Under the pieces are notes generated by a model. The model did not search any database. It was not told the DNA's origin and saw only the letters and a program-made list of their open reading frames with translations. The position numbers and the translations under genes were made by a program. From positions 1 to 24,823 of the forward strand of contig NZ_JAQFIQ010000034.1 in NCBI RefSeq assembly GCF_029504745.1: 24,823 nucleotides of DNA, read 5' to 3'. Source of the stretch: Breznakia sp. PF5-3. GTDB lineage: Bacteria > Bacillota_I > Bacilli_A > Erysipelotrichales > Erysipelotrichaceae. Numbering within the stretch: the stretch's first letter is position 1; every line of letters begins with the position of its first letter. This document shows, piece after piece, positions 6,812 to 23,937 of this stretch.

Positions 6812-7815
6812 TTCAAGGTTAATGCAATAGATGATTGCAATAACCTTGAAAATACAATATTGAATTTAGTCAACGTATTTCCTTGCTAGAAGCTGCAGAA
6901 CTTTTAAATGTAAACAGTTCAACAATCTATAGAGAAATTATGCAGCATAGAATTAAACAAGCATACAAGCAAAACCAGTATTACCATAGTAAGGACCACC
7001 AAAGTCGTCTAAATTGTCCGTTTACAGAAAAATTCCCGTATACTTGCAATAATTGTGAAAAGTATCCGAGATGTACAAAAACAAGGTTTAAATATGATGC
7101 TTATAGTGCCAATGAAATAGCTAGGAAGGAATTAAAAAACTCAAGAAGTAAACCTTCTCTATCAAATGCTGATATCAAAAAATTAGATAAAAAGATATCT
7201 CCACGTGTATTACAAGGACAGTCTTTATATCATATACTTCAAAGTGATAAGACGATTTTAAAATCTGAATCCACAATACGTCGTTATATTGATCAAACAC
7301 TTCTTACATGCAGAAACATTGATTTACCTAGAAGCTGCAAATCTGTGAACAGTTGTATTCGAAATCTCATTCAAAAATTACAACAGCTTTATCATAGAAT
7401 TTTCTTTGATTGCATTCTCACAGATAATGGGTCAGAATTCAAAAATTTGCACAATGAAGAACAAGACTTAGAGACTGGAGAACAATTCTTTAAACTTTTC
7501 TTCTGTGATCCTTACTCATCATTTCAAAAAGGAGGATGTGAACGCAATCATGAATTATTTCGATATATCCATAAAAAAAAAGAAAACCTTCGACAATCTA
7601 ACTCAAGAAGATATATCTGAAGCGTTTTCTCATATCAATTCTTAAACAGGAAATCACTAAAGGGACGATCACCATATCAAGCCTTTAGTAAAAAGTTTGG
7701 CATAAAGTCAGAGATTCTTGGTATAAAAAGAATTGATCCAAAAGATGTAAAATTGAAAAAATAAATAACAATTTCGCACCTAAGACACAACTTATTCCAT
7801 TGCAATAAGGTTGAA
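6812..7815 (+). mobile_element. Decayed IS30-family insertion sequence (candidate ends only)
   Basis: It contains the transposase pseudogene. ttcaaggttaatgcaat (6812-6828) and attgcaataaccttgaa (6834-6850) form an inverted pair at the left. attgcaataaggttgaa (7799-7815) recurs at the right, 15/17 identical to 6834-6850. The true IR boundaries are uncertain. Confidence 0.5.
6883..7764 (+). pseudogene. IS30-family transposase pseudogene
   Basis: HTH (LNVNSSTIYREI), a Cys-rich region, IDLPR, LTDNGSEF and DPYSSFQKGGCERNHELFR are IS30-like. The N-terminus is missing (no ATG). The catalytic core between IDLPR and LTDNGSEF is far too short. The frame breaks at the A9 run (7573-7581). The remaining C-terminus is split over two other frames with in-frame stops (KTFDNLTQEDISEAFSHINS*, then SLKGRSPYQAFSKKFGIKSEILGIKRIDPKDVKLKK*). 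Confidence 0.8.
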
Positions 7816-7819
7816 AACT

Positions 7820-7839
7820 AAAAGGTAGCAACCTTTTTT
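7820..7839 (+). terminator. Small terminator-like hairpin after the IS30 relic
   Basis: aaaaggt-agca-acctttt followed by tt. Confidence 0.35.
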
Positions 7840-7880
7840 CGTCATGTCCTTAACTAACTATATTATACACAATAACTTAG

Positions 7881-7915
7881 AAATGAGCGAGATTTATATA
7901 GAAAATCGCTCATTT
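7881..7915. terminator. Intergenic hairpin (terminator-like)
   Basis: 10-bp stem aaatgagcga (7881-7890) / tcgctcattt (7906-7915) with a 15-nt loop. Function unknown. Confidence 0.3.
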
Positions 7916-8003: not shown

Positions 8004-8034
8004 AAAATCGCGGAGAGGTTATTTCCGCGATTTT
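8004..8034 (-). terminator. Rho-independent terminator closing the surface-protein operon
   Basis: 11-bp stem aaaatcgcgga (8004-8014) / tccgcgatttt (8024-8034). On the minus strand it is followed by ttttgttgttt. It lies 80 nt after the last CDS. Confidence 0.7.
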
Positions 8035-8113: not shown

Positions 8114-8248
8114 TTATTCCTTATAAAATCGTTCTATTATTTCTTGGTCATCTTTTCGTCTATTCTTATTTGCGACTAAATATAAGTAACATGATATTAC
8201 TGTAAACACCAAAATAATCATCGCAATAATATCATACCAACAAATCAT
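8114..8248 (-). CDS. Small single-pass membrane peptide (44 aa), translationally coupled to the upstream gene
   Basis: MICWYDIIAMIILVFTVISCYLYLVANKNRRKDDQEIIERFYKE. AAGGAGG lies 8 nt upstream of the ATG (8246-8248). The ATG overlaps the TGA of the 359-aa gene as ATGA. The 81-aa track ORF (to 8359) is an unsupported upstream extension. Confidence 0.6.
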   Translation of the reverse strand: MICWYDIIAMIILVFTVISCYLYLVANKNRRKDDQEIIERFYKE

Positions 8249-9324
8249 GCTTGCATCCTCCTTGACTCTTTCAAATGTGTGTTTCGCACTTTTGTATAAC
8301 CTACAGTTGTAGCAATCAACAATGTGCTTATACCTAGTAATATCCAATGCGTATAACAAGTTTGATTTAATACGGAAAGTGATTTCTTAACTTCTGTAAA
8401 CTCGTCTCTATCAAATGAATAAACCTTATAGTTTTCATCATTTTTTAATTTATCAATCTCTTTCAGTCTTGCTATGATTGAATCATAACGATTTTCACCA
8501 GACAGACTACTTTCCTTTTTTAGTGTGAAACTGTACTCTTTTCGTCTAACTGTGTCTAAAATTTTCTCAACTTCTTTCGATCCTATTTCATTTATCACCT
8601 TGTCTACCACTTCTCTATCAAGATTCACTTGATTCCCTTGGTTTCCACTTTCAGGAATATTAGGATAATTAGGACTTATCGAAGCAGACTGTTTTTTCCC
8701 AGCTACAATCTGAATAGTTTCTATTGTCCACCAAATTGTTGATATATCATTCTCGTCATACCCATCATGTGAGAGCATAAGCTCTCCATCAATCATTGAG
8801 GTCATATTAAAATCACCAAAAGTAAAGGCTATATTTGTTCCGCTCGTACTTGTGTCTACGTTACGAATTCGAAACTTAATTTTAGCGACAATACCCCCAC
8901 TCTTGTTTCCAGTACCTGGATCTCTTTTTTCACTAACAAACCGAATTTTCCCTTTCTTTCCATTAGCATTTTGAGACATATTTGACCATCCAGTATTTTT
9001 TAACTCAGCACACATAGAAGAATTCACTTCACTGAAACTACTGTATAACTCCAAACTATTGTAATCATATGTGATACTCTCCATGAAAGATACTGCATCT
9101 GTATTCGCAGGAAGTATTATATTAACTTGTATAATATTCCCATTTTGATAATGCATTACACCATTTTCCTCATACGGTTGCGCACCACCCCCAACATACT
9201 CAATCGTATGATGCAAAGTTCTCGACACTTGATTTGATGTCACTTTATTTTGAGCATTCATGCTACCATTTTCCATCCAAAACAGCAGTCCAACCATAAC
9301 CAATAATAATATATTCTTTTTCAT
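8245..9324 (-). CDS. Secreted, C-terminally membrane-anchored protein with a cohesin-like N-terminal module
   Basis: Signal peptide MKKNILLLVMVGLLFWMENGSMNA. Residues about 35-205 are paralogous to the N-terminal modules of the 1053-aa and 534-aa proteins (NGxIIxVxxxLP...YDxxxLxL...GGxxAKIxFxI...GTxIxFxF). C-terminal TM HWILLGISTLLIATTVGY followed by a basic tail. Confidence 0.75.
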   Translation of the reverse strand: MKKNILLLVMVGLLFWMENGSMNAQNKVTSNQVSRTLHHTIEYVGGGAQPYEENGVMHYQNGNIIQVNIILPANTDAVSFMESITYDYNSLELYSSFSEVNSSMCAELKNTGWSNMSQNANGKKGKIRFVSEKRDPGTGNKSGGIVAKIKFRIRNVDTSTSGTNIAFTFGDFNMTSMIDGELMLSHDGYDENDISTIWWTIETIQIVAGKKQSASISPNYPNIPESGNQGNQVNLDREVVDKVINEIGSKEVEKILDTVRRKEYSFTLKKESSLSGENRYDSIIARLKEIDKLKNDENYKVYSFDRDEFTEVKKSLSVLNQTCYTHWILLGISTLLIATTVGYTKVRNTHLKESRRMQA

Positions 9325-9360: not shown

Positions 9361-12300
9361 CTATAAATTAACTCCTGCTGGAACCTTGACATAAGGAGGT
9401 TCATCGCTAGGATTCATTAAGTGATAGTTAATTCTCGCTACATCATATGAATCTATAATTCCATTTCCGTTCGCATCTGATAATAGAAGTACTAACTCTG
9501 TTTGTGAATCTTCATTCATTATGTAGTAACTAAATCTAGCTTTATCATATGAATCAACCATTCCATTTTCATTGTAATCAAATAACATAACATCTCTTGT
9601 TTTTTGAACAACACTGATTGTAACTGTTTTTTCAACATAACTACTACCTGTTCCATAACTATATGTAATGTTGTAATCTCCTAAAACACCATTTTTAATA
9701 TTGTTTAAGTTGCCATTAGAAATAGATACAGTTGGAGCCGCAGTCGTTCCATCCGCAAATACTACTTCTGCTTCATTAAACGGAATTAAATCTTCTGCTT
9801 TTGTAATTTTCTTTGCATCATCATTTGTAATTTCACCATCATTTGCTTCTAATGCAACTTTTCCATCTGGTGATATTACAGCTTCATCTGAAACAACTGT
9901 GATTTTTACTGTTTTTTCAACATAACCATCACCTGTTCCATATGTATACATAACATCGTAAGAACCCAATGTTCCTTTTTTGATATCCAACCATTCATTA
10001 TTTGTCACTGTAACATTTGGTGTAGCTGTGCTACCATCAAACATTGTCACTAATGCTTCGTTATAAGTGGATAAATCTGTTTTTGCTGATAATGCTTTTG
10101 CTTGACTTACTGTAATATGTTTGTCTTTTGCATATAAACTTGCTTTTTCATTTTCAGAAACTTCAGACCCATCTTTAATTACTGTTAATTTCACCTTTTT
10201 TAATAAAGTACTTGCAGGTGTAGGATATGAATATGTAACATTATATGTTCCTAAAGCACCATCTAGAACATCTAACCATTCACCTGTAGTAACATTTACA
10301 TTTGGTGTAGGAGTTGTTCCATCTAGCATCATAACAACAGCTTTATTAATTGGAATTAAATCTGCTTTAGCTCTTAATGCTTTTGCATCTTTTTGGAAAA
10401 TAAATCCATCTTTTGCAGATAAGCTTCCGTATTCATCAGTTGCTGCATCATCATCGATAACATTTACTCTAAAAGTTTCAGTAACTTGTTTATCACCTGT
10501 TCCATATGTATATGCAATTTCATATGTTCCAATTGTTCCTAGTTTAATTGATGCAAAATCTAACGTTGTTACACTAGGAGTAGGATTTGTTCCATCCATT
10601 GCTGTTACTTTTACTTTATTAATACCTATTAAGTCTTCCTTAGCTACTAATGCTCTTGCTTGTGTTTGTGTAATTTGAGCATTTTCCCCTTCAATTTGAT
10701 GCGCTTTGTCTTTTGCAATTTCTAAAGTTACAGTTTTGCTAACCGCATCATCACCACTTCCATATGAGAACACTATAGTATAATCACCTATTACACCCTT
10801 TTTAATATTTGTCCAATCCGACACACTAATTTGTGGAGTGTATGTATTTCCATCTGAATCTGTAACAAGTGCATTTGCTAAATCAATCAAATCACTTTGA
10901 CTAACTAAAGCTTTAGCTTCACTTTCAGACAATTCAATATCATCTGCTGATAGACTATATTTTTCATTCTTAGAAACTTCATCGTTATCTCCAATAACGG
11001 TGATTTTAACTTTAAGATCCGTTTCATTCACACCAGAACCATAAGCATAATACACATCATATCCACCTTTATTACCACTTCTGATTTCTGTCCAATTGTT
11101 TGCTGATACTGATGCATCAGGATTCGCAGTTGTACCATCGGCTAAATATACAATTGCTTTATTGTATGGACGAAGCTCATTACGATTAGTTAAATTTTTC
11201 GCAATGGATTCTTTTATAAATCCCGATTCTGCATATACTGCGAATTTTCCATCTGGAGAAATTTCTGATCCATCTGGAACAACCACCACGTTAACAGTTT
11301 TTTCTGCTAACCCTTGGCCACTACCATACTTATAAGTGACAGGATAAGCACCAATTTTTCCTGTTTTCAATGTTGAAAATTGACTACATACAACACTTGG
11401 AACTGCACTTGTCCCATCGCTCTTTGTAACTTTAGCACTATTTAAATTAATCAACTGTGAAGTGCTTGATAATGCTTTAGCTTCACTTTGTGTAATAATT
11501 TTATCTTTTGCATAAACTGCATTATTTCCGTCTGGAGAAATTGTACTTCCATCTTCAATAACATTTAACTTAACTGTTTTAGAATCTGATAAACCTGCAT
11601 CACTATACGAATATGTAACTGTATAAGCTCCTAAAGTTCCCGATTTAATTGCAGCTAAATTTGATGCTGTTGCAGTTAAATTCAAAGGCGTTCCATCTCC
11701 CAATTCAGCAACTACTTTATTAGTTGCTTTTAAATCCATTGCTGTATTTATAAGCTTTGCATCACTTTGTGTAATAAAGCCGTCTTTTGCATTAAAGTTA
11801 ACACTTGGTGACTTTGCCATTACAGTTACGCTTGGTAAGTCACAAGACATTGTATTGATCTTATCATTTATATCATATCCTGGTGTTAACCAGTTGAAAT
11901 CAATATCTACTGCATCATAATTTTTAAAATCAAAAGTTATTGGTGTTCCTGCATCTGTTTCAACACCATTATTTATCTTGAAATATATTTTTGCAATCGC
12001 TCCACCTTCATTAATAGGTACATCTGTTTTATATGTAGATGAACGTAATAATATATATGAATGCGTACTCGAAACTGAATGAATCCCTACCAAGTTAGAC
12101 CAGCTACTTGCTTTGAAGTTCGAATCTAAAGACGCCAAAATATCATCAGAGGTTGAAATTAATTGAACCTTTGTAGGATCATAATGAACTTCTTCTTTTA
12201 AAGAAATTGCATAATTATCTACTGGTAAAGATAATCTAACTTCAAGAATACTTCCATTTCTATAGTATGTTGTCCCTCCTTCATTATAACTTGGAGCAGA

Positions 12301-12480
12301 AACTCCATAGCCAGTTCCATCATTCCAAGTCACTGTATTGTTCATAACAATCGGACCATAAACTGATACGCCATCACCCACAATTGCGCTAACATTCAAT
12401 AACGAAGATGGCAAAATGCATGTAATTGCTAAAGCTATAGCAAAAAACATCTTATTTAATTTGAATATATTTTTTTTCAT
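9361..12480 (-). CDS. Large secreted protein: cohesin-like module, 8 Ig-like (Big_3-like) repeats, C-terminal dockerin-like module
   Basis: I start at ATG 12480 (MKKNIFKLNKMFFAIALAITCILPSSLLNVSA, RBS GAAAGGA). The track start at 12522 adds 14 residues. There is no membrane anchor. See the repeat and dockerin features. Confidence 0.85.
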   Translation of the reverse strand: MKKNIFKLNKMFFAIALAITCILPSSLLNVSAIVGDGVSVYGPIVMNNTVTWNDGTGYGVSAPSYNEGGTTYYRNGSILEVRLSLPVDNYAISLKEEVHYDPTKVQLISTSDDILASLDSNFKASSWSNLVGIHSVSSTHSYILLRSSTYKTDVPINEGGAIAKIYFKINNGVETDAGTPITFDFKNYDAVDIDFNWLTPGYDINDKINTMSCDLPSVTVMAKSPSVNFNAKDGFITQSDAKLINTAMDLKATNKVVAELGDGTPLNLTATASNLAAIKSGTLGAYTVTYSYSDAGLSDSKTVKLNVIEDGSTISPDGNNAVYAKDKIITQSEAKALSSTSQLINLNSAKVTKSDGTSAVPSVVCSQFSTLKTGKIGAYPVTYKYGSGQGLAEKTVNVVVVPDGSEISPDGKFAVYAESGFIKESIAKNLTNRNELRPYNKAIVYLADGTTANPDASVSANNWTEIRSGNKGGYDVYYAYGSGVNETDLKVKITVIGDNDEVSKNEKYSLSADDIELSESEAKALVSQSDLIDLANALVTDSDGNTYTPQISVSDWTNIKKGVIGDYTIVFSYGSGDDAVSKTVTLEIAKDKAHQIEGENAQITQTQARALVAKEDLIGINKVKVTAMDGTNPTPSVTTLDFASIKLGTIGTYEIAYTYGTGDKQVTETFRVNVIDDDAATDEYGSLSAKDGFIFQKDAKALRAKADLIPINKAVVMMLDGTTPTPNVNVTTGEWLDVLDGALGTYNVTYSYPTPASTLLKKVKLTVIKDGSEVSENEKASLYAKDKHITVSQAKALSAKTDLSTYNEALVTMFDGSTATPNVTVTNNEWLDIKKGTLGSYDVMYTYGTGDGYVEKTVKITVVSDEAVISPDGKVALEANDGEITNDDAKKITKAEDLIPFNEAEVVFADGTTAAPTVSISNGNLNNIKNGVLGDYNITYSYGTGSSYVEKTVTISVVQKTRDVMLFDYNENGMVDSYDKARFSYYIMNEDSQTELVLLLSDANGNGIIDSYDVARINYHLMNPSDEPPYVKVPAGVNL
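9412..9579 (-). other. Dockerin-like module (two EF-hand-type Ca-binding loops)
   Basis: DYNENGMVDSYD-KARFSYYIM and DANGNGIIDSYD-VARINYHLM, 34 aa apart. Both loops have D/N at positions 1, 3, 5, 9 and 12, as in type I dockerin duplicated segments. Confidence 0.7.
9595..11799 (-). repeat. Eight tandem protein-level repeats of about 93 aa (Big_3 / bacterial Ig-like)
   Basis: Recurrent pattern AKD-x-I-x-x-S/T-x-AKAL-...-DGT-x-x-x-P-x-V-...-G-x-x-G-x-Y-x-V/I-x-Y-x-Y-G-x-G-...-K-x-V-x-I/V-x-V. The repeats are diverged (roughly 30-40% identity by eye), so they are not DNA-level repeats. Confidence 0.75.
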
Positions 12481-12544
12481 ATTATCCTTTCTAAATCGAC
12501 AAGCAAGAAAAGATGCCTTCACACCTTTTCTTTATTTATCTTTT

Positions 12545-14101
12545 CTATTTACTACTTGATTTAACTTTTTTAACACCAAATCCCATCGCTACCATTGACA
12601 TCAATGCTGTAAACATCCATGCAATAGTATTTGTAGTATCTGCTGTTCCAACACCAGTAGAACCATCTCCCGCTCCAGCAGTAGATGCTGCAGAAATTAC
12701 TGAATCTTTACTTCCATCATTTCCGTTTCCACTGTTATTACCATTGTTCCCACTATTATTTGATCCATTTATTTTTATTAGACCTTTCACAATGTAATTC
12801 TCTTTAGTAGCACTTAATTTATTCCATTCATTTACATCGCTACCATTATATTTTGTAATTACGCGATTACCATCGCTATCATAAGATATAATTGGCATTA
12901 CCAATTCATAATTGACACCAAATGTCTGATCACCAATTAATTTACCATCACTATCTACCTTATATTTTTCCGTATTTCCATTCAAAGCAACACCTTCAAC
13001 CATAAATGTTGATCCATCATTACATGATACCGTTACCTTAAATGCATCATTTACTGCATCTTGTAATTCTTTTTTCATATCATCTTCAGAAGTACCAGCA
13101 TCAAACGTAAACTCTTTTCCTGTTTTATCTACTTTTGTAATTGTATATGTTCTTTCTGTAACTGTTACTGTTGCTGTAGCCGTTGTTGTTTTTCCATAAT
13201 CATCTGTAATTGAATATGTATATGTGTATGTTCCAGCTTCTGGTTGATGTTTCGTGAATACTCCATCTCCTCCAGAAATTGTTACATTTTCTTTACCGAC
13301 TGTATTTCCTTGGCTATCTTTAACTGACGAAATTAAACTACTAGGGTCAAACACATCACCTTCATAAATTGTTTTTGTAGCTGTTTCTAAGCTAATGCTA
13401 GGTGAAGTTTCATTTGCTTTTGGTTTTTTCACAACAATTGAGAATGGGTCACATTCACAGAACATTGATAACTTATCTGCTGGATCAAAACCTAATGTCA
13501 AATAATCAAAATTTGCATCAATAGCATCAAAGTATGGTGATGTAAATGTTATTGTTGTTCCCTCCTCAGTGGCAACTCCTTGGTTAATTTTGAAATAAAT
13601 TTTACACAACTTTCCACCTTCATAATTAGGTGTACAAGTCCTTGATGCTGCTTGGATCCTTATCATACTTGTTGTTGCGTCAATTGGGTACCCATTACAA
13701 AGCATTTCAAAATTATCTTTGTAAAAGCTACTTGGCATCGTTGCTGTAACATCAGTATACGATGATACTAATGTTAGTTTCGTTGAATCATAACGTATCT
13801 CATTCATTGTACTGATTGTACTATGATTATCTGGCAATACAACTGCCACCTCAATAATACTTCCATCTTGAAAATAAGTTACCCCATCTTCTACATAAGA
13901 TGATGGTGATACACCATATCCCGCAGAACCATCTGCCCATGTTACTGAGTGCGTAGCTTTAAAAGGTGGGGCAAGTGTACTCACTTGCTGGTCTGCGTGC
14001 GCTTTGCTACGTGAACCCTCAATAATAAGTCCAGTTCCAACAAGTGCTACAATAAGCATACATATGAAACTAACTCTAAATTTCATTTTCGATTTAATCA
14101 T
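12545..14101 (-). CDS. Secreted, C-terminally anchored protein: cohesin-like module, Ig-like domain, unknown domain, N/G/S-rich linker, TM
   Basis: I start at ATG 14101 (MIKSKMKFRVSFICMLIVALVGTGLIIEGSRSKAHA, RBS AGGAAGGAG). The N-terminal module is paralogous to the two downstream genes. There is one Big_3-like unit (TIYEGDVFDP...GTYTYTYSITDDYGKTTTATATVTV). The tail is NNSGNNGNNSGNGNDGS...TIAWMFTALMSMVAMGFGVKKVKSSSK. Confidence 0.8.
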   Translation of the reverse strand: MIKSKMKFRVSFICMLIVALVGTGLIIEGSRSKAHADQQVSTLAPPFKATHSVTWADGSAGYGVSPSSYVEDGVTYFQDGSIIEVAVVLPDNHSTISTMNEIRYDSTKLTLVSSYTDVTATMPSSFYKDNFEMLCNGYPIDATTSMIRIQAASRTCTPNYEGGKLCKIYFKINQGVATEEGTTITFTSPYFDAIDANFDYLTLGFDPADKLSMFCECDPFSIVVKKPKANETSPSISLETATKTIYEGDVFDPSSLISSVKDSQGNTVGKENVTISGGDGVFTKHQPEAGTYTYTYSITDDYGKTTTATATVTVTERTYTITKVDKTGKEFTFDAGTSEDDMKKELQDAVNDAFKVTVSCNDGSTFMVEGVALNGNTEKYKVDSDGKLIGDQTFGVNYELVMPIISYDSDGNRVITKYNGSDVNEWNKLSATKENYIVKGLIKINGSNNSGNNGNNSGNGNDGSKDSVISAASTAGAGDGSTGVGTADTTNTIAWMFTALMSMVAMGFGVKKVKSSSK

Positions 14102-14156
14102 TTTATTTCTCCTTCCTGTTAAATCTTTACTAAGAACCTTCGTCCTCACAAGTTAT

Positions 14157-14181
14157 GACGAAATGAAAATAAATTACGTTC
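14157..14181 (-). promoter_or_regulatory. ECF-type promoter candidate P2 (GAAC-N17-CGTC) upstream of the surface-protein genes
   Basis: The minus strand reads ataGAACgtaatttattttcatttCGTCata, 56 nt upstream of ATG 14101. It is near-identical in extended sequence to P1. Confidence 0.6.
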
Positions 14182-14275
14182 TATTCAAAATAATCTTTAA
14201 ATAACTCAAATAAAATATGTAATATATTTTTGGCTAACATATTACATATTTTTAACTATATTAATTTAAACCAAA

Positions 14276-15610
14276 TCAATTTGCCTCTACTATATCATTC
14301 ACCTTTATATCAAATGTTGCATAATTTCCAGCATGATCATACAATCGTAATTCGCCATTTGCAAGTATTTGTTCCTGTAATGTTGCAATCATATTTTTAT
14401 CATCAATGCTTTTAAATGAAATTCTTTGATTATTTGAAATAAAATATGATCTAGAAAAATCAACCCCTGCTAAATCATCCATAGCTGTAATTTGTAATAG
14501 CCCATTTCGTTCTTCCATTGAAACTATCTCTGGGAGAGATTTGTCAATATTAGAAATAGCTATATCTTTATGAAAATCTCCGTAAGCAAAATTATATATT
14601 CCATTACCTTTAGCAATAAAGCTTATCGTTTTTTGATCCTCTTTATGTACTTCTATGCTCTCGTTATTAAAGATAATAGAAATCAACTCCTCATTTATAT
14701 CATTATCAAACCTTAAAACAATTTGAAGATTTTTATTAGTCAAATTGTCATCAAAATTTATTTCTTCAAGCTTTGCTTCTTCCAAAATTGCTTCACTTTC
14801 ATTATTTGATGCTTGTAATTCATTAATACCAATATATGCACTTGTTCCACCAATCAGAATACTTGATGAAATAATAGCAACTGTTACAGCTGTTGATACC
14901 CCCTGCACACCTACTGAAGCAATTGTTGTTATCTCTGTAGATTGTGCAATCGTTTTATAAATAAAGTCTTGCTTATCCATACTAAGTGACTCACTTTCTA
15001 CAATTCGTTGAAATAACCGCACTGTTAATGGATTAATCGAAAACATTAAATACCTAGATGGTGTAATTTTTTTATTAGTTAATTCTTTTTGTAAAATCTT
15101 GCGAATTCGATATAATCTACTTTTGATTGTCCCCTCAGGCATATTCATAATTTGGGCAATTTCATCAATATTCAAATCACCAACAAAACGAAGTGTTGCA
15201 ATTCTTTGTGACTCATTTGGCAACTTATTAATTTCTTCTTTAACCTCTAAAAAAAGTTCATTTCGCACCATTTGTTCTTCTGTGCTAGCATCATCATTTG
15301 AATATACATCTTCAAAAAGAACTTCATTTCTTTCAGAATATTTAACATTTCTCCGATATATATCTAGGCTGCAATTATAAGTTATCCTAAAAACCCAGGA
15401 GTTAAATGCTCCTGTTTCTTTTACATTTCCACGGTTTTTTATAATCTTTATAAATGTTTCTTGCACTACTTCCTCAGCGTCTGCACTATTATGCAAAACA
15501 GAGAATGCCATATAATGAATTTTATTTTGATAATTCCTATATATTTCAGGAAAAACCGTATCATCTCCATCTAGAAATTGTCGTATTATCTTTTCCTTTA
15601 ATTTTGACAT
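14276..15610 (-). CDS. ECF-type sigma-70 family factor fused to a TM segment and a C-terminal extracytoplasmic domain
   Basis: Region 2 (EEVVQETFIKIIKN...FNSWVFRITYNCSLDIYRR) and region 4 (LPNESQRIATLRFVGDLNIDEIAQIMNMPEGTIKSRLYRIRKIL). A hydrophobic stretch covers aa about 227-262. The about 150-aa C-terminal domain is paralogous to that of CDS 16251..16898. Confidence 0.85.
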   Translation of the reverse strand: MSKLKEKIIRQFLDGDDTVFPEIYRNYQNKIHYMAFSVLHNSADAEEVVQETFIKIIKNRGNVKETGAFNSWVFRITYNCSLDIYRRNVKYSERNEVLFEDVYSNDDASTEEQMVRNELFLEVKEEINKLPNESQRIATLRFVGDLNIDEIAQIMNMPEGTIKSRLYRIRKILQKELTNKKITPSRYLMFSINPLTVRLFQRIVESESLSMDKQDFIYKTIAQSTEITTIASVGVQGVSTAVTVAIISSSILIGGTSAYIGINELQASNNESEAILEEAKLEEINFDDNLTNKNLQIVLRFDNDINEELISIIFNNESIEVHKEDQKTISFIAKGNGIYNFAYGDFHKDIAISNIDKSLPEIVSMEERNGLLQITAMDDLAGVDFSRSYFISNNQRISFKSIDDKNMIATLQEQILANGELRLYDHAGNYATFDIKVNDIVEAN

Positions 15611-15632
15611 ATTTTGCCCTCTCTATACATAT

Positions 15633-15657
15633 GACGTCAACCAATTTATATACGTTT
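15633..15657 (-). promoter_or_regulatory. ECF-type promoter candidate P3 (AAAC-N17-CGTC) directly upstream of the sigma-fusion gene
   Basis: The minus strand reads tcaAAACgtatataaattggttgaCGTCata, 23 nt upstream of ATG 15610. Confidence 0.5.
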
Positions 15658-15667
15658 TGAATTTATA

Positions 15668-16243
15668 TCATTTACCATTCCCAAAAGAATTAAATGGATA
15701 TAGAATAATAATCCCTCTTGAAATAATATTTTTTGCTTTAATCGCTCCAAAAGAACGTGAATCACTAGAGTAAGGGCGATTATCACCCAATACAAAATAT
15801 TCATCTTCTTTCAAAGAAACAGGACCAAAATCCTTCGTAAAAACTGATGATGTTTTAAGATAGTTCTGTTTATATTGCGCATCTAAAAACGGTTCTTCTA
15901 CTTCTATCCCATCTACATACAGTTTGTCATTCATATAGAAAATCGTTTCTCCAGGTAAACCAACCACTCTTTTCACTAATTCTATATCTTCACCTTTTCT
16001 ATTATTTGTATCTTTTATGATTACAATTTCAAAACGCTTTATATCTTTAATATTAGAAAATAATTTATTACTAACGCCATACTCACCAGCTTTTAATGTA
16101 GGATACATACTATCACCATAAATTTCAACTTGATGAAAAATAAATCTTGTAATTACAAAAATCAAAATCAGAAAAATTATTAGTACTTTTATCATAATGA
16201 TATTCCAGTACTTGATTTTATCTTTATCATCAGTTTCTCTCAT
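15668..16243 (-). CDS. lepB: Type I signal peptidase (S26 family, LepB/SipS-type)
   Basis: N-terminal TM, then GDSMYPTL (catalytic Ser box), VKRVVGLPGE (Lys box) and GDNRPYSSDSR. Confidence 0.9.
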   Translation of the reverse strand: MRETDDKDKIKYWNIIMIKVLIIFLILIFVITRFIFHQVEIYGDSMYPTLKAGEYGVSNKLFSNIKDIKRFEIVIIKDTNNRKGEDIELVKRVVGLPGETIFYMNDKLYVDGIEVEEPFLDAQYKQNYLKTSSVFTKDFGPVSLKEDEYFVLGDNRPYSSDSRSFGAIKAKNIISRGIIILYPFNSFGNGK

Positions 16244-16250
16244 TATAAGT

Positions 16251-16898
16251 TTATTCTATATCCTCTACCCGTATATCATAAGATGCATAGTTACCAGCTT
16301 TATCATATAACATCAAGGTAGCATCCTTCTCTAACGCTTCTTTAATTACAGCAATATCTTGTTTGCTTTTCATGATAGTAATTTTTTCATCATCAACTTT
16401 AATATGTGACTTCTTATAATCAATCCCACTACCTTTATCAGTTACTGTTAATGTCAATAAGCCAGACGAATCCTTATTAATACTTTTCAATACAGGCCCA
16501 TCTTTATCAATATTATCGATTTTTATCGTTTCGCTAAATTTTCCATATGAAATCTTATAATTTCCATTCTTCTGTACTATAAAATGAAGAACATCATCTT
16601 CTTTTTTTACTGCTATTTTCTTTTTGTTAGATGTAACGCTCAGCTTTGACTCATCAGCATCTCCGCTAATCATAATTGCCACCTGCACATCAGTATTAGT
16701 CTTTTCTTTTTTATATACGATATTTTCTATGTATGAGGTTGCAACTACCGAATCCTTACTATTTGACATTTCAAATATTGATATTGTTGCAACTAGTACG
16801 ATAACAACACTTAAAGTAACCAATACTATTTTGAGTCTTTTCTTGGATTTATCACTATTTTGAATAAATGTCATAATTTCCTTAATTTTCTTCATCAT
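16251..16898 (-). CDS. Single-pass membrane protein whose ectodomain is paralogous to the sigma-fusion C-terminal domain (anti-sigma-like or co-sensor candidate)
   Basis: TM LKIVLVTLSVVIVLVATISIF. The ectodomain aligns with the sigma-fusion C-terminus (NGNYKISYGKFSETIKIDNIDKDGP...GLLTLTVTD...LMLYDKAGNYASYDIRVEDI against NGIYNFAYGDFHKDIAISNIDKSLP...GLLQITAMD...LRLYDHAGNYATFDIKVNDI). The start may be the second ATG (16895), judging by AGGAGA spacing. Confidence 0.75.
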   Translation of the reverse strand: MMKKIKEIMTFIQNSDKSKKRLKIVLVTLSVVIVLVATISIFEMSNSKDSVVATSYIENIVYKKEKTNTDVQVAIMISGDADESKLSVTSNKKKIAVKKEDDVLHFIVQKNGNYKISYGKFSETIKIDNIDKDGPVLKSINKDSSGLLTLTVTDKGSGIDYKKSHIKVDDEKITIMKSKQDIAVIKEALEKDATLMLYDKAGNYASYDIRVEDIE

Positions 16899-16904
16899 CT
16901 TCTC

Positions 16905-17348
16905 CTACTTACATTTCATTCCCGCTTCACTTAAATTCTTTTTAGCTGTTTCAAGTTTAATTTTATCTTCATCTGCTGACAAAAATTGAACTAGTAAACC
17001 TGACTCTTTCAATTCTTTAATCGTACTATCGTCAATTGCTATCTTAATTGTTTCTTTTAACTCTTTATCTGAAATTTTATACGAGTAGTCTACTCCTTTA
17101 ATTTTTTTATACTGTTTCCCAACCGTTTTAGCTATTTCTTCTAAATCTTCTTTTGAATATAGTTCCTCATCAACTTCAATTTGATTATCATATGTAATCT
17201 TTTGAACCTCTCCATCTTTTGATTCCATTGTCACCGTAGATTCTGGTGTTGTTATATCTTCAAATGTACATACTGTTTCTTTTGTCTTTGATCCGCATGC
17301 TCCTAATAGTAGCACACATGAAAATAGCATTAATATTCTTTTTCTCAT
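16905..17348 (-). CDS. Lipoprotein (YehR/DUF1307-like)
   Basis: Lipobox LLLGAC|GSK after MRKRILMLFSCV. Size and the KGVDYSYKISDKELKETI pattern resemble DUF1307 lipoproteins (visual call). Confidence 0.7.
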   Translation of the reverse strand: MRKRILMLFSCVLLLGACGSKTKETVCTFEDITTPESTVTMESKDGEVQKITYDNQIEVDEELYSKEDLEEIAKTVGKQYKKIKGVDYSYKISDKELKETIKIAIDDSTIKELKESGLLVQFLSADEDKIKLETAKKNLSEAGMKCK

Positions 17349-17409
17349 TTCTCAGTTTCCTTTCTTCATTTATTCAAGCTACAGATATTTCTGCTCACTT
17401 CATAAATAT

Positions 17410-17434
17410 GACGAAAGAAAAATCAATTGCGTTC
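17410..17434 (-). promoter_or_regulatory. ECF-type promoter candidate P1 (GAAC-N17-CGTC) upstream of the lipoprotein to sigma operon
   Basis: The minus strand reads gtaGAACgcaattgatttttctttCGTCata, 62 nt upstream of ATG 17348 and just downstream of terminator 17465-17500. Confidence 0.6.
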
Positions 17435-17464
17435 TACATCTTTAAAAAAAAATCATTTTTCCAC

Positions 17465-17500
17465 AAAAAAAAGCCAAGAGTATCTTAAATAACTCTTAGC
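17465..17500 (-). terminator. Rho-independent terminator (ends the candidate sRNA/leader)
   Basis: The minus strand reads gctaagagt-tatttaagat-actcttggc (9-bp stem, 1 mismatch) followed by 8 T. Confidence 0.7.
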
Positions 17501-17592
17501 TTTTATATGCAATATGTGGGAGTGAACCTTGATCAATAGTCTAAGCTATAAAGGTTTTTACGAGATCTAAGTCTCAAATGTGAACACTCCCT
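17501..17592 (-). ncRNA. Candidate structured small RNA or cis-leader of unknown class
   Basis: Closing helix GGGAGUG (17591-17585) / CACUCCC (17524-17518) encloses two hairpins, GAGA-CUUAGA-UCUC and AACCUU..AUAG-CUUAGA-CUAU..AAGGUU, with identical hexaloops. An extended -10 (TGaTATACT, 17607-17599) lies about 7 nt upstream of the helix. The terminator follows. Confidence 0.3.
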
Positions 17593-17667
17593 AATTAAAG
17601 TATATCACATTCCCTCACACATTTGCGTAAGTCTTATGTTTTATTAAGATATCTCTTAACTTTATAA

Positions 17668-17696
17668 TACGAAAAAGAATGCCAAATGGCATTCTT
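17668..17696 (-). terminator. Rho-independent terminator of tuf / the str operon
   Basis: Stem aagaatgcc (17675-17683) / ggcattctt (17688-17696) with a 4-nt loop. On the minus strand it is followed by tttttcgtatt. Confidence 0.75.
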
Positions 17697-17720
17697 AATG
17701 TAAATATTCTATTTTTTAAA

Positions 17721-18905
17721 TTATTTAATAATTTCAGTAACGTTTCCAGCTCCAACTGTACGTCCACCTTCACGGATTGAGAACTTAGTTCCTTGTTCAA
17801 TCGCGATTGGTGCAATAAGTTCAACTGTCATTTCTACGTTATCACCAGGCATAACCATCTCAGTTCCTTCTGGTAAAGTAATAACTCCTGTTACATCCGT
17901 AGTTCTGAAGTAGAATTGAGGACGGTAGTTAGAAACGAATGGTGTATGACGTCCACCTTCTTCTTTACTTAAAACATATACTTGTGCTTTAAATTGAGTA
18001 TGTGGTGTTACACTACCAGGTTTACAAAGAATTTGTCCACGTACGATTTCATCACGGTTAACTCCACGAAGCAATGCTCCAATGTTGTCTCCAGCTTCAG
18101 CGTAATCTAACAATTTACGGAACATTTCAATTCCTGTAACAACTGTTTTCTTAGTATCTTTGATACCAACGATTTCAACTTCTTCATTGATGTTTAATTG
18201 TCCACGTTCAACACGTCCTGTAGCAACTGTACCACGTCCTGTAATTGTGAAAACATCTTCTACTGACATCAAGAATGGTTTGTCAGTTTCACGTACTGGA
18301 TCTGGAACGTATTCGTCAACTGCATCCATCAATTCATTGATTTTTTCTACCCAAGCAGCATCTCCTTCAAGAGCTTTAAGAGCAGATCCACGAATTACTG
18401 GAGCGTTATCTCCATCAAAGTTATATTCGCTTAATAATTCACGAACTTCCATTTCAACTAAATCTACTAATTCATCGTCATCAACCATATCACATTTGTT
18501 TAAGAAAACAACGATTTTGTCAACACCTACTTGGTTTGCAAGTAGAATGTGTTCACGTGTTTGAGGCATAGGCCCATCAGTTGCAGCAACTACTAAGATT
18601 GCTCCATCCATTTGTGCAGCCCCAGTAATCATGTTCTTAACGTAGTCAGCATGACCTGGACAGTCAACGTGTGCATAGTGACGTTTTTCTGTTTGGTACT
18701 CAACGTGTGCAGTATTGATTGTAATTCCACGTTCTTTTTCTTCTGGTGCTCCATCAATTTGGTCATAAGCTTGCGCTTCAGCTTGACCTTTGTTAGCTAA
18801 TACATTTGTAATAGCTGCTGTTAATGTTGTTTTACCGTGGTCAACGTGACCAATTGTTCCAATATTAACATGTGTTTTCGATCTATCGAACTTTTGTTTA
18901 GACAT
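17721..18905 (-). CDS. tuf: Elongation factor Tu
   Basis: Unmistakable EF-Tu sequence ([30 protein letters not shown]), 394 aa. Confidence 0.99.
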
Positions 18906-22158: not shown

Positions 22159-23937
22159 TTATTTCAGATCCATAAAACCCCATATTCCGTTTTTCCTTAC
22201 CATGATTACACCATTTGCTGGTGCACTCAAATCATCATATTTCCCTTGAAAAAGAATATTCCCTTTATTATCCAACAATCCCATTTCATCACCAAGTTTA
22301 AAATATGCATAATTTTTATTTAAAACTTCCATATCATCATAGAGGTTTGATGTTAAGTTTATTCCTTCTTCATTTATTAATTTCCATTTATCTCCTTTAC
22401 GAAGTGCCGCTAATCCATATACTCTTTTAGGACCAGCTACCGTAATATAAACTGTTCTTACTTCATCATATATATTATGACTAATAGGCTTATCATTTCT
22501 AAAAACAATATATTTTTTTGTTTCCTTATAGTCAAACTGTGGATTATCAAACCGATGTGTATCTACCTCAATAATTTCAGTCGTATCTTTTTCTCGAGTT
22601 TGATATAAAACCCATTTTAGTTTTGTATCAAACGAAGTTCCTGTTTCATTAAAATCTTGCATGAGCATATATACTTGTTGTCTATCTGAAAAATAAACAA
22701 CTGGAGGATATGTGCCACCAATTCCACTACATATCCCTTTATCCTCCACTTCAACATCTATTAAATCCACTACATAGTGAATTGCTTCCATAGAATACTC
22801 ATCTTTGGGTGGATATACAAATGCATAAGCATCTTCCCCCAAACATTGACGATATTTTTCTTGCTTCTCAAAAACCACGGTATTGTCAATATCTACAAAT
22901 TTTGACTTGCCATTTTCAGTAAGTAAAAATCCTTTATCATAAAGTGCGATTGGTCGCTCATCAAGATAATGTGAAGGAACAACACGCCATGTATCTTCAT
23001 TCAAAGCAGTTTGCGTATCAATCGGGTGGGGTTGTGTTTCACTTGGCGGATTGATATCAACTGTTTCTTTTTGCTTCAGTTGTTGATTATTAATTAAAAT
23101 ACCTGCTGTTGCCAGTACTGCAACAGCACTAACACCAGCTATAACTTTAGCAACTGTAGCAGTTGCAATCGTCACGCCGGCAATTGTAATCACTCCTGTA
23201 CCCACTGCTGTACCACCTATTGCAGCTAGGGTCGTGGTAGAAACAACTTCAGGAACGATAGTAGAACTTGCTAAATCCTTTAATATATATAAGAAAAGTG
23301 GAATTGGTGCCACACTCCTCAATTTCGTCCCAGTTGATTCTACTTCTTCTACTTTCCGCTTGATTTGCTTCTTGCCATAATTTAATCTGCTTTTTACCGT
23401 ATTTGGTGATATATCTAAGATATCTGCTATTTCATTGATTGATAGTTGTTGATAATAAAACATAAGAATACACATTCTATTTTCTTCACTTAATTCATCA
23501 ATCATATTTGATATAGCTTCTTTCAATTCATTATAATTATATGTTTCTGATGGATTGAACTCTATTTTATCATCTTCAATAAACTCCTCAATATTTTGAT
23601 CATCTTCTGTTGTATCTGTAAAAAGAAACGGCTTTTTTTTCTTTAAATAATCTTTTGCTTTATTGGCAACAATCCTATTTATCCATTGTGGAAACTTATT
23701 ATCATCATCCAATTGTGATAACTTCGAAAATGCTATCACATATGCATCTTGGAGAATATCAAAAACTGTTTGTTCATCACTTACAAACTTCTTTGCTACA
23801 AAATATACATTATTTGAAGTTTGTTCATAAATTTCTTGTATCGCTTTTTGATCTCCGTCCCTAGCCCTACATACATAGTCACTAAGTCCCTCTTCTACGC
23901 TTCTTCTTTTAAAATTAAACACACTCATTACCCACAC
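22159..23937 (-). CDS. Second ECF-type sigma-70 family factor fused to TM segment(s) and a C-terminal WG-repeat domain
   Basis: Region 2 (DILQDAYVIAFSKL...FPQWINRIVANKAKDYLKK) and region 4 (LSEENRMCILMFYYQQLSINEIADILDISPNTVKSRLNYGKKQIKRK). A long Ala/Gly/Thr/Val-rich hydrophobic stretch follows. C-terminal WG-type repeats are present (GDKWKLINEEG, EMGLLDNKGN, NGIWGFMDLK). The start is ambiguous between GTG 23937 and ATG 23928. Confidence 0.8.
   Translation of the reverse strand: MWVMSVFNFKRRSVEEGLSDYVCRARDGDQKAIQEIYEQTSNNVYFVAKKFVSDEQTVFDILQDAYVIAFSKLSQLDDDNKFPQWINRIVANKAKDYLKKKKPFLFTDTTEDDQNIEEFIEDDKIEFNPSETYNYNELKEAISNMIDELSEENRMCILMFYYQQLSINEIADILDISPNTVKSRLNYGKKQIKRKVEEVESTGTKLRSVAPIPLFLYILKDLASSTIVPEVVSTTTLAAIGGTAVGTGVITIAGVTIATATVAKVIAGVSAVAVLATAGILINNQQLKQKETVDINPPSETQPHPIDTQTALNEDTWRVVPSHYLDERPIALYDKGFLLTENGKSKFVDIDNTVVFEKQEKYRQCLGEDAYAFVYPPKDEYSMEAIHYVVDLIDVEVEDKGICSGIGGTYPPVVYFSDRQQVYMLMQDFNETGTSFDTKLKWVLYQTREKDTTEIIEVDTHRFDNPQFDYKETKKYIVFRNDKPISHNIYDEVRTVYITVAGPKRVYGLAALRKGDKWKLINEEGINLTSNLYDDMEVLNKNYAYFKLGDEMGLLDNKGNILFQGKYDDLSAPANGVIMVRKNGIWGFMDLK

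Follow-up and report, generated by a model that had tools for sequence, protein, structure and literature searches.

A candidate non-cellulosomal cohesin-dockerin module centred on an Ig-repeat stalk protein in Breznakia

A 24,823-nucleotide (nt) stretch of DNA from Breznakia sp. PF5-3 (assembly GCF_029504745.1, contig NZ_JAQFIQ010000034.1, positions 1 to 24,823), referred to here as the window, carries a gene for a 1039-amino-acid (aa) protein that we call the stalk. Its gene lies between those of two paralogs, the long anchor and the short anchor, and the three proteins are identical to MDF9825238-40 of the same strain. A sequence-only reading of this DNA had described the stalk as one polypeptide in which eight immunoglobulin (Ig)-like repeats separate a cohesin-like from a dockerin-like module. 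This architecture is real and its module assignments are correct. The stalk is probably a secreted adaptor in a cohesin-dockerin system of non-cellulosomal type, by which Breznakia and related Erysipelotrichales would build long adhesive structures on their surface. The three genes and their modules, in window coordinates, are:

9361..12480, minus strand: gene for the stalk (adaptor), with signal peptide, cohesin, eight Ig-like repeats and dockerin, and no anchor
12385..12480, minus strand: Sec signal peptide of the stalk, residues 1-32 (MKKNIF...LLNVSA/IVG, read from the sequence)
11794..12354, minus strand: divergent cohesin of the stalk (clade A), about residues 43-229, from Pfam, profile and fold matches
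9586..11805, minus strand: spacer of eight tandem Ig-like repeats of ~93 aa, from self-comparison, model and fold matches
9418..9582, minus strand: type-I-like dockerin of the stalk with two calcium loops, from Pfam Dockerin_1 and direct reading of the loops
12545..14101, minus strand: gene for the long anchor, 518 aa, with signal peptide, cohesin, Big_3-like domain, further domain, low-complexity linker, TADTTN motif, transmembrane (TM) segment and basic tail
13409-13966, minus strand: clade-A cohesin of the long anchor
8245..9324, minus strand: gene for the short anchor, 359 aa, with signal peptide, cohesin, linker, CYTHW motif, TM segment and basic tail
8680-9225, minus strand: clade-B cohesin of the short anchor (Pfam Cohesin, 18.8 bits)

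The open reading frame (ORF) at 9361-12480 on the minus strand encodes 1039 aa from its ATG, or 1053 aa if an upstream GTG at 12522 is used. The shorter figure had been given as the size of the mature protein; it is that of the precursor, signal peptide included. The product is MDF9825239.1 (100% identity), which NCBI names 'dockerin type I domain-containing protein'. An AXA-like signal peptidase I site is present at the end of the signal peptide in all homologs. Lipoprotein anchoring through a Cys in the signal peptide was considered and rejected, as the homologs have Y, T or V in its place and all keep the AXA-type site, so a lipoprotein anchor on the stalk is unlikely from its sequence. The C-terminus, as read from the sequence, contains neither a TM segment nor a sorting motif, in agreement with the earlier description of the stalk as lacking an anchor.

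Dockerins consist of two duplicated segments, each with a 12-residue EF-hand-like calcium loop (D or N at positions 1, 3, 5, 9 and 12) followed by a helix, and the stalk C-terminus has this build. Its loops, DYNENGMVDSYD and DANGNGIIDSYD, both follow the pattern DxNxNGxxDxxD, with D1, N3, N5, D9 and D12 all kept. The region scores 26.6 bits against Dockerin_1 (PF00404; cutoff 22.9, E=7e-6), covering profile positions 2-56 of 57, and the same model exceeds its cutoff in all seven long-type homologs scanned (23.0-36.5 bits). The best sequence match in the PDB is likewise a dockerin-type duplicated segment. The pair of EF-hand loops noticed at the outset is thus a dockerin above the Pfam cutoff with both calcium loops intact. 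Its 21-residue halves are nearly symmetrical, with 12 of 21 residues identical, positions 10-11 (SY) included. Symmetry between the halves of a dockerin is the mark of a dual binding mode.

The spacer between the two modules contains eight repeats with a period of about 93 aa and pairwise identities of 26-51%. An AlphaFold2 model of one repeat (predicted local distance difference test score, pLDDT, 94) is a beta-sandwich with short helices added, and its best PDB matches are Ig-like linker domains, namely MmChi60, ZmpB INT and InlK (TM-score 0.5-0.58, E 7e-4 to 1e-2). The number, period and Ig-like character of the repeats were therefore correctly described in the sequence-only reading, but their membership in the Big_3 family is not established: Pfam Big_3 (PF07523) gives the whole stalk a marginal 21.8 bits (cutoff 21.2), with no single stretch above cutoff.

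The N-terminal module of the stalk, also proposed to be cohesin-like, scores 23.8 bits in isolation against Pfam Cohesin (PF00963; E=5.5e-5), where the cutoff is 24.1. The same model matches 13 of 19 family members at E<=1, at best with 4.5e-6. A profile built from the 19 family sequences matches solved scaffoldin cohesins of A. cellulolyticus (3l8q, E=3.4e-6; 3fnk, 5.6e-4; 3ghp, 1.1e-3; 4u3s, 9e-3). An AlphaFold2 model of the module is of moderate quality (pLDDT 71, predicted TM-score 0.73). When it was compared with the PDB by Foldseek, the top 18 matches were cohesins only (E 2e-5 to 6e-4, TM-score 0.42-0.59), with the R. flavefaciens ScaC cohesin 5lxv as the best, 5nrm and 4dh2 among the others, and the C. 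perfringens cohesin-like module 2jh2 as match number 4. Structure prediction, suggested earlier as a check for an unrelated fold, has thus returned a cohesin fold. In a HMMER search with a profile of the three paralogs against 1.84 billion representative proteins, the matches outside the family that were scanned with Pfam, all but the two large repeat proteins P0015 and P0022, carry Pfam Cohesin well above cutoff. These four independent lines of sequence and model evidence indicate that the N-terminal modules of all three paralogs are cohesins.

The most conserved motif of the family, G..SY.E.G..YY..G, is at about 12220-12354 of the window on the minus strand (stalk residues about 23-45 of alignment A2). 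It sits in an N-terminal beta-hairpin extension, ahead of the part that aligns with Pfam Cohesin from profile position 16 on. To judge from these alignments, the extension is a family-specific addition to the cohesin fold. A single-sequence homology search with the stalk N-module found no protein, and the same search with the 19-sequence profile found P0012 alone. A scan of genome contigs with the single stalk protein gave no match, nor did two scans of metagenome contigs.

The family comprises about 20 clusters at 50% identity among 1.84e9 proteins, and the clusters that can be traced to a named taxon come from genomes of Breznakia, an insect-gut bacterium, and of Thomasclavelia or Coprobacillaceae. 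Seven related loci were compared with that of the window: L001 (a Logan assembly), L002 (a Breznakia metagenome-assembled genome, MAG), L003 (B. pachnodae DSM 16784), L005 and L007 (two more loci from the genome or strain group to which the window belongs), L009 (from another organism, orthologous to L005) and L010 (the ortholog of the window locus, from a Thomasclavelia MAG). In all eight loci the gene order is long anchor, stalk, short anchor; each of these proteins has a cohesin, and the stalk has a dockerin as well. The linked cohesin and dockerin genes span at least three genera-level lineages.

Both flanking paralogs had been read as a cohesin-like module joined to a TM anchor, and this holds: they share the N-terminal module, and each has a C-terminal hydrophobic segment followed by a basic tail. 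The N-modules of the window paralogs align over about 190 residues, with identities to the stalk of 40% for the long anchor and 28% for the short anchor. NCBI names the long anchor 'bacterial Ig-like domain-containing' and the short one 'hypothetical', and leaves the cohesins of all three proteins unannotated. In the long anchors of the window, L002, L003, L005 and L007, the motif [TN][GA]D[TA]TN directly precedes the TM segment and basic tail (12545-12640 of the window, minus strand); the window has TADTTN and the homologs have TGDTTN. When compared with the LPXTG-anchor model TIGR01167 (cutoff 15.9 bits), the long-anchor C-termini of L002 and L003 score 17.2 and 18.7 bits, from TG onward, and that of the window, which reads TAD, falls below the cutoff. 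The motif may be a non-canonical sorting signal. Short anchors share CY[TRK]H[WY] before the TM segment instead. The window ORFs scanned contain no sortase domain, and the subunits no pilin motif. The earlier suggestion of an assembly that needs no sortase agrees with the window ORFs but is uncertain, given the L002 and L003 long anchors that pass TIGR01167.

A fourth structural protein of 1061-1671 aa, which we call the tip, is encoded in each of the seven related loci. It consists of a signal peptide, a variable head, stalk-type repeats of ~93 aa and a dockerin. Four tips reach the Dockerin_1 cutoff; in those of L002, L007, L009 and L010 a precomputed Dockerin_1 match is absent, weak or faint, and the two calcium loops were read by eye. 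One type of head resembles Lectin_L-type (E=1.6e-7) and another Pectate_lyase_5 ('adhesive domain', E=0.0018), both below the Pfam cutoff. The canonical kit, as deduced from these genes, is three cohesins, two dockerins, stalk repeats and an adhesive head, a composition that points to a surface adhesin or fibril and not to an enzyme complex. No tip gene is present in the window, where the sigma factor and long-anchor genes are only 126 nt apart, with EF-Tu upstream. L005 (1960-11221) and L007 (78-11077) are complete kits with a tip, so that one genome or strain group has three paralogous kits of which the window's alone is tipless. We propose that the window locus has lost its tip gene and that in sister loci the tip is the natural ligand source for the stalk cohesin.

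Beside the L001 module (11471-18481 of that locus) is a gene for a 2336-aa GH31 / F5-F8-type-C protein whose C-terminus, like those of the long anchors, ends in a TxDxTN motif, a TM segment and a basic tail. Read by eye, this protein contains a dockerin-like loop pair (GDYTNDGKVNEDD...ADINYDNIIDAYD) followed by a cohesin-like segment, which is reminiscent of large C. perfringens glycosidases. Such a protein is what might be expected if the cohesins served as an enzyme scaffold, either a mini-cellulosome or of the C. perfringens type, and recruited dockerin-bearing glycoside hydrolases encoded elsewhere. The stalk, with one cohesin and one dockerin, has the build of the monovalent adaptor scaffoldin that this explanation assigns to it. 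However, the GH31 dockerin was recognized by eye, and what accompanies the dockerins encoded in the eight modules is stalk repeats and heads of lectin-like or adhesive type. When the modules were examined for a scaffoldin system, defined by at least two cohesins and a dockerin-fused glycoside hydrolase, each protein had one cohesin, and none of the dockerin proteins of the eight modules had a glycoside hydrolase. Also, the described Breznakia species are not known to be cellulolytic. By its gene content, the Breznakia module is not a cellulosome, and we consider an enzyme scaffold improbable.

Of the possible arrangements, a stalk docked on the anchored paralogs has the best support, because the cohesin and dockerin genes share one operon in all eight loci. 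The stalk would be exported by Sec and its signal peptide removed by signal peptidase I, perhaps the enzyme encoded in the same locus. Its C-terminal calcium-dependent dockerin would then plug into the cohesin of a membrane- or wall-anchored paralog encoded by an adjacent gene. The 518-aa long anchor is the more likely receptor; its cohesin is the one nearest to that of the stalk. The eight Ig-like repeats would hold the N-terminal cohesin away from the cell, by a few tens of nanometres in a rough, uncomputed estimate. This distal cohesin would accept a further dockerin, that of the co-encoded tip in sister loci and perhaps that of another stalk copy. Because the window locus seems to have lost its tip gene, the window stalk might be capped by a tip from the other two loci of the same genome, might be extended by its own kind, or might present an empty socket. 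Anchors have an N-terminal cohesin and a C-terminal TM segment, stalks an N-terminal cohesin and a C-terminal dockerin, and tips an N-terminal head and a C-terminal dockerin, a topology that fits the stacking of anchor, stalk and tip. On these grounds we consider it likely that the stalk is held at an anchored paralog through its dockerin and offers its distal cohesin to a further dockerin.

Relations among the modules bear on which dockerin enters which cohesin. The cohesins form two clades, A with those of long anchors and stalks, and B with those of short anchors. Whichever locus is taken, the stalk cohesin resembles that of the long anchor most (41-57% identity, with 45% in the window, and 81% in L010) and that of the short anchor less (27-40%). 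Both dockerins and cohesins group largely by locus lineage, and dockerins also separate partly by type, as the tip dockerins of L001, L003 and L009 form a clade (bootstrap 77) apart from stalk dockerins. Tip and stalk dockerins are 73% identical in L005 (bootstrap 100) and 52% identical in L009 and L010, and the window stalk dockerin clusters with the tip and stalk dockerins of L010. The L005 short anchor is 22-33% identical to its L009 ortholog in the cohesin region and 42-58% in the C-terminal part. It appears that the L005 short-anchor cohesin was replaced by a clade-A copy and that the L005 tip dockerin turned stalk-like, and that L009 keeps both ancestral types. These relations are evidence that the cohesins and dockerins of a kit evolve together. 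A strict rule of two specificities, with stalk dockerins for clade A and tip dockerins for clade B, was considered and set aside, since L010 misfits: its two dockerins are similar, yet it keeps a clade-B cohesin.

A dockerin suited to the long anchor could plausibly enter the cohesin of the stalk itself as well. Head-to-tail self-polymerisation, in which the dockerin of one stalk enters the cohesin of another to give an anchored base, a shaft of stalks and a tip as cap, had been raised in the sequence-only reading and is compatible with tethering to an anchor. The resemblance of stalk and long-anchor cohesins within every locus (41-81%) favours it, but overall identity is a poor guide to cohesin-dockerin specificity, which is not readable from a value such as 45%. 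Tip and stalk dockerins are homogenised within loci, and if a tip binds the stalk cohesin, a stalk may do so too; however, the separate clade of L001, L003 and L009 tip dockerins is what would be expected of a two-specificity hierarchy without self-binding. The double change in L005 relative to L009 is suggestive as well, although this correlated-switch argument has one lineage behind it. An experimental precedent exists in R. bromii Amy4, whose dockerin binds its own cohesin (PMC4611034). Taken together, these points leave self-polymerisation a tentative possibility. The classical scaffoldins that have cohesins and a dockerin (CipA, ScaA, ScaB) are not known to self-bind, which counts against it. 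A sortase-independent, pilus-like fibre made solely by calcium-dependent cohesin-dockerin links, with three paralogous and possibly orthogonal kits in the genome, is rather unlikely.

Tethering of the stalk to an anchored paralog, the arrangement that we prefer, has several points against it. Module identities, paralogy, synteny and taxonomic restriction are seen directly, and every binding step is inferred. Either of the two anchors could take the stalk. The lectin-like and pectate-lyase-like assignments of the tip heads are below threshold. In the window the stalk's own dockerin is, for want of a tip gene, the sole ligand within the locus for its cohesin, a circumstance that also speaks for self-polymerisation. 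Lastly, the three cohesins have diverged so far that their scores do not rise above the Pfam cutoff, and dockerin binding may have been lost or altered. Their low scores would also be compatible with a secreted or loosely attached Ig-repeat protein whose ends are structural relics or bind non-protein ligands, and many non-cellulosomal dockerin-like modules reportedly have no known partner (Peer et al. 2009). Such non-interacting relics are very improbable, because every ligand position is kept in both calcium loops and the linkage of cohesin and dockerin genes is conserved in all eight loci and across the three or more lineages. The co-divergence of the modules by locus is, in addition, a pattern that relics would not be expected to keep.

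Other genes of the window locus are all on the minus strand as well, in the order DUF1307, 215-aa TM protein, signal peptidase I, sigma factor, long anchor, stalk, short anchor and 44-aa ORF. The str operon (S12, S7, EF-G and EF-Tu) and then a terminator-like hairpin (17696-17675) precede them. Besides the three structural genes, the locus contains:

16905..17348, minus strand: DUF1307 lipoprotein-like gene; a DUF1307 gene is also beside the L007, L009 and L010 modules
16251..16898, minus strand: 215-aa TM protein, a paralog of the extracytoplasmic domain that the fused sigma carries (184 aa aligned, 34% identical, E=5e-31)
15668..16243, minus strand: signal peptidase I (S26), with catalytic Ser (GDSMYP) and Lys (VKRVVG) present
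14276..15610, minus strand: extracytoplasmic function (ECF)-type sigma factor that continues into a TM segment and an extracytoplasmic domain (about 180 aa); every related module has a fused sigma of this build next to it
8114..8248, minus strand: 44-aa single-TM ORF (MICWYDIIAMIILVFTVISCYLYLVANKNRRK...), overlapping the short-anchor stop codon by 4 nt

Signal peptidase I keeps its synteny with the module in L002, L003 and L010, the window copy being 48% identical to that of B. pachnodae, and it may serve specifically to process the stalk and anchors. The fused sigma, also encoded near the module in all seven related loci, may be a membrane-tethered one-component regulator; that the adjacent signal peptidase takes part in its release is pure speculation. 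A second fused sigma of 592 aa (22159-23937, minus strand), with ECF-type regions 2 and 4 and a C-terminal extension whose end is a WG-containing repeat (PF14903), is encoded just upstream of the str operon. In the place of the 215-aa TM protein, between the tip and signal peptidase genes, L010 has a 128-aa ORF (7527-7913) that corresponds to a single stalk-type repeat. Homologous ORFs of 49-59 aa follow the short anchor in L005, L007 and L010, the loci checked, and the 44-aa TM ORF is probably a fifth conserved component of the module. It is followed at 8004-8034 by a G+C-rich hairpin with flanking A and T runs. A promoter scan of the window was uninformative (54 sites found, 58 expected). 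Beside the module end is a 245-aa ORF on the plus strand (6883-7620) whose one domain match, to HTH_17, is below threshold. It resembles a truncated gene of a mobile element or of a regulator, and could be linked to the rearrangement that removed the tip gene.

The co-occurrence of a cohesin and a dockerin in one polypeptide, emphasized in the sequence-only reading, is present in the stalk but is no surprise, as it is the normal architecture of adaptor scaffoldins and is found in R. bromii Amy4. In the monovalent adaptor scaffoldins of cellulosomes, such as R. flavefaciens ScaC, which are compared here together with anchoring scaffoldins (ScaE, OlpA/OlpC), one cohesin and one dockerin similarly bridge an anchored cohesin and a further dockerin protein. 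The Breznakia module differs from these in that it has no glycoside hydrolases or carbohydrate-binding modules and places a 740-aa spacer of eight repeats between cohesin and dockerin. Its anchors use a C-terminal TM segment, unlike the S-layer homology (SLH) domains or clear LPXTG signals of anchoring scaffoldins, its cohesins are too divergent for Pfam, and its host is a non-cellulolytic member of the Erysipelotrichales.

A precedent for the display of an adhesin by cohesin-dockerin binding is the CttA XDoc of R. flavefaciens, bound to the ScaE cohesin (PMC4266597). There, as would be the case in Breznakia, where the arrangement is read from genes only, a non-enzymatic adhesive protein is held at the surface by a C-terminal dockerin in an anchored cohesin. 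CttA binds cellulose and is attached in a single step inside a cellulosome system, whereas the Breznakia kit can interpose a cohesin-bearing stalk, has lectin-like or pectate-lyase-like heads, and is encoded whole in one self-contained operon. Amy4 (Sca1) of R. bromii shares with the stalk a cohesin and a dockerin on one polypeptide, and recognition of its own cohesin by its dockerin leads to autoaggregation (PMC4611034). However, Amy4 is an amylase, its self-binding was demonstrated with isolated modules, and neither an ordered fibre nor a gene module for anchor, shaft and tip is known for it. The C. perfringens X82 cohesin/dockerin complexes are a further case of such pairing outside cellulose degradation, and also in a gut Firmicute, but they join secreted enzymes or toxins and not anchors, Ig-repeat stalks and adhesive tips.

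Sortase-assembled pili resemble the Breznakia module by analogy only, in that a possible base, an Ig-like shaft and an adhesin tip are encoded in one operon, and that the locus includes a gene of the signal peptidase family. In streptococcal pilus loci the corresponding place is taken by SipA/LepA. The window differs in having no sortase gene and no pilin motif, and the links proposed here would be non-covalent and calcium-dependent where those of pili are isopeptide bonds. By this comparison the module is not a member of the sortase-pilus family, and the resemblance would be functional only.

A literature search on cohesin-dockerin fibrils or adhesins returned nothing specific, and the system, an adhesin or fibril kit that is rare, self-contained and non-cellulosomal, has unannotated cohesins and occurs three times in one genome, appears to be undescribed. 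Cohesin-dockerin pairs are familiar chiefly as what holds cellulosomes and amylosomes together. Here, a compact operon appears to put the same type of link to use in mounting long Ig-repeat stalks and adhesive heads on the surface of non-cellulolytic gut Erysipelotrichales. The divergence of the cohesins explains why public annotation misses them. Should the stalk form chains with itself, the three paralogous kits in one genome would offer candidate orthogonal cohesin-dockerin pairs for protein engineering. The idea of a fibre is testable because B. pachnodae DSM 16784, a strain deposited in a culture collection, carries the full kit. If the stalk does chain onto itself, it would represent a new non-covalent route to fibres in Gram-positive cells.

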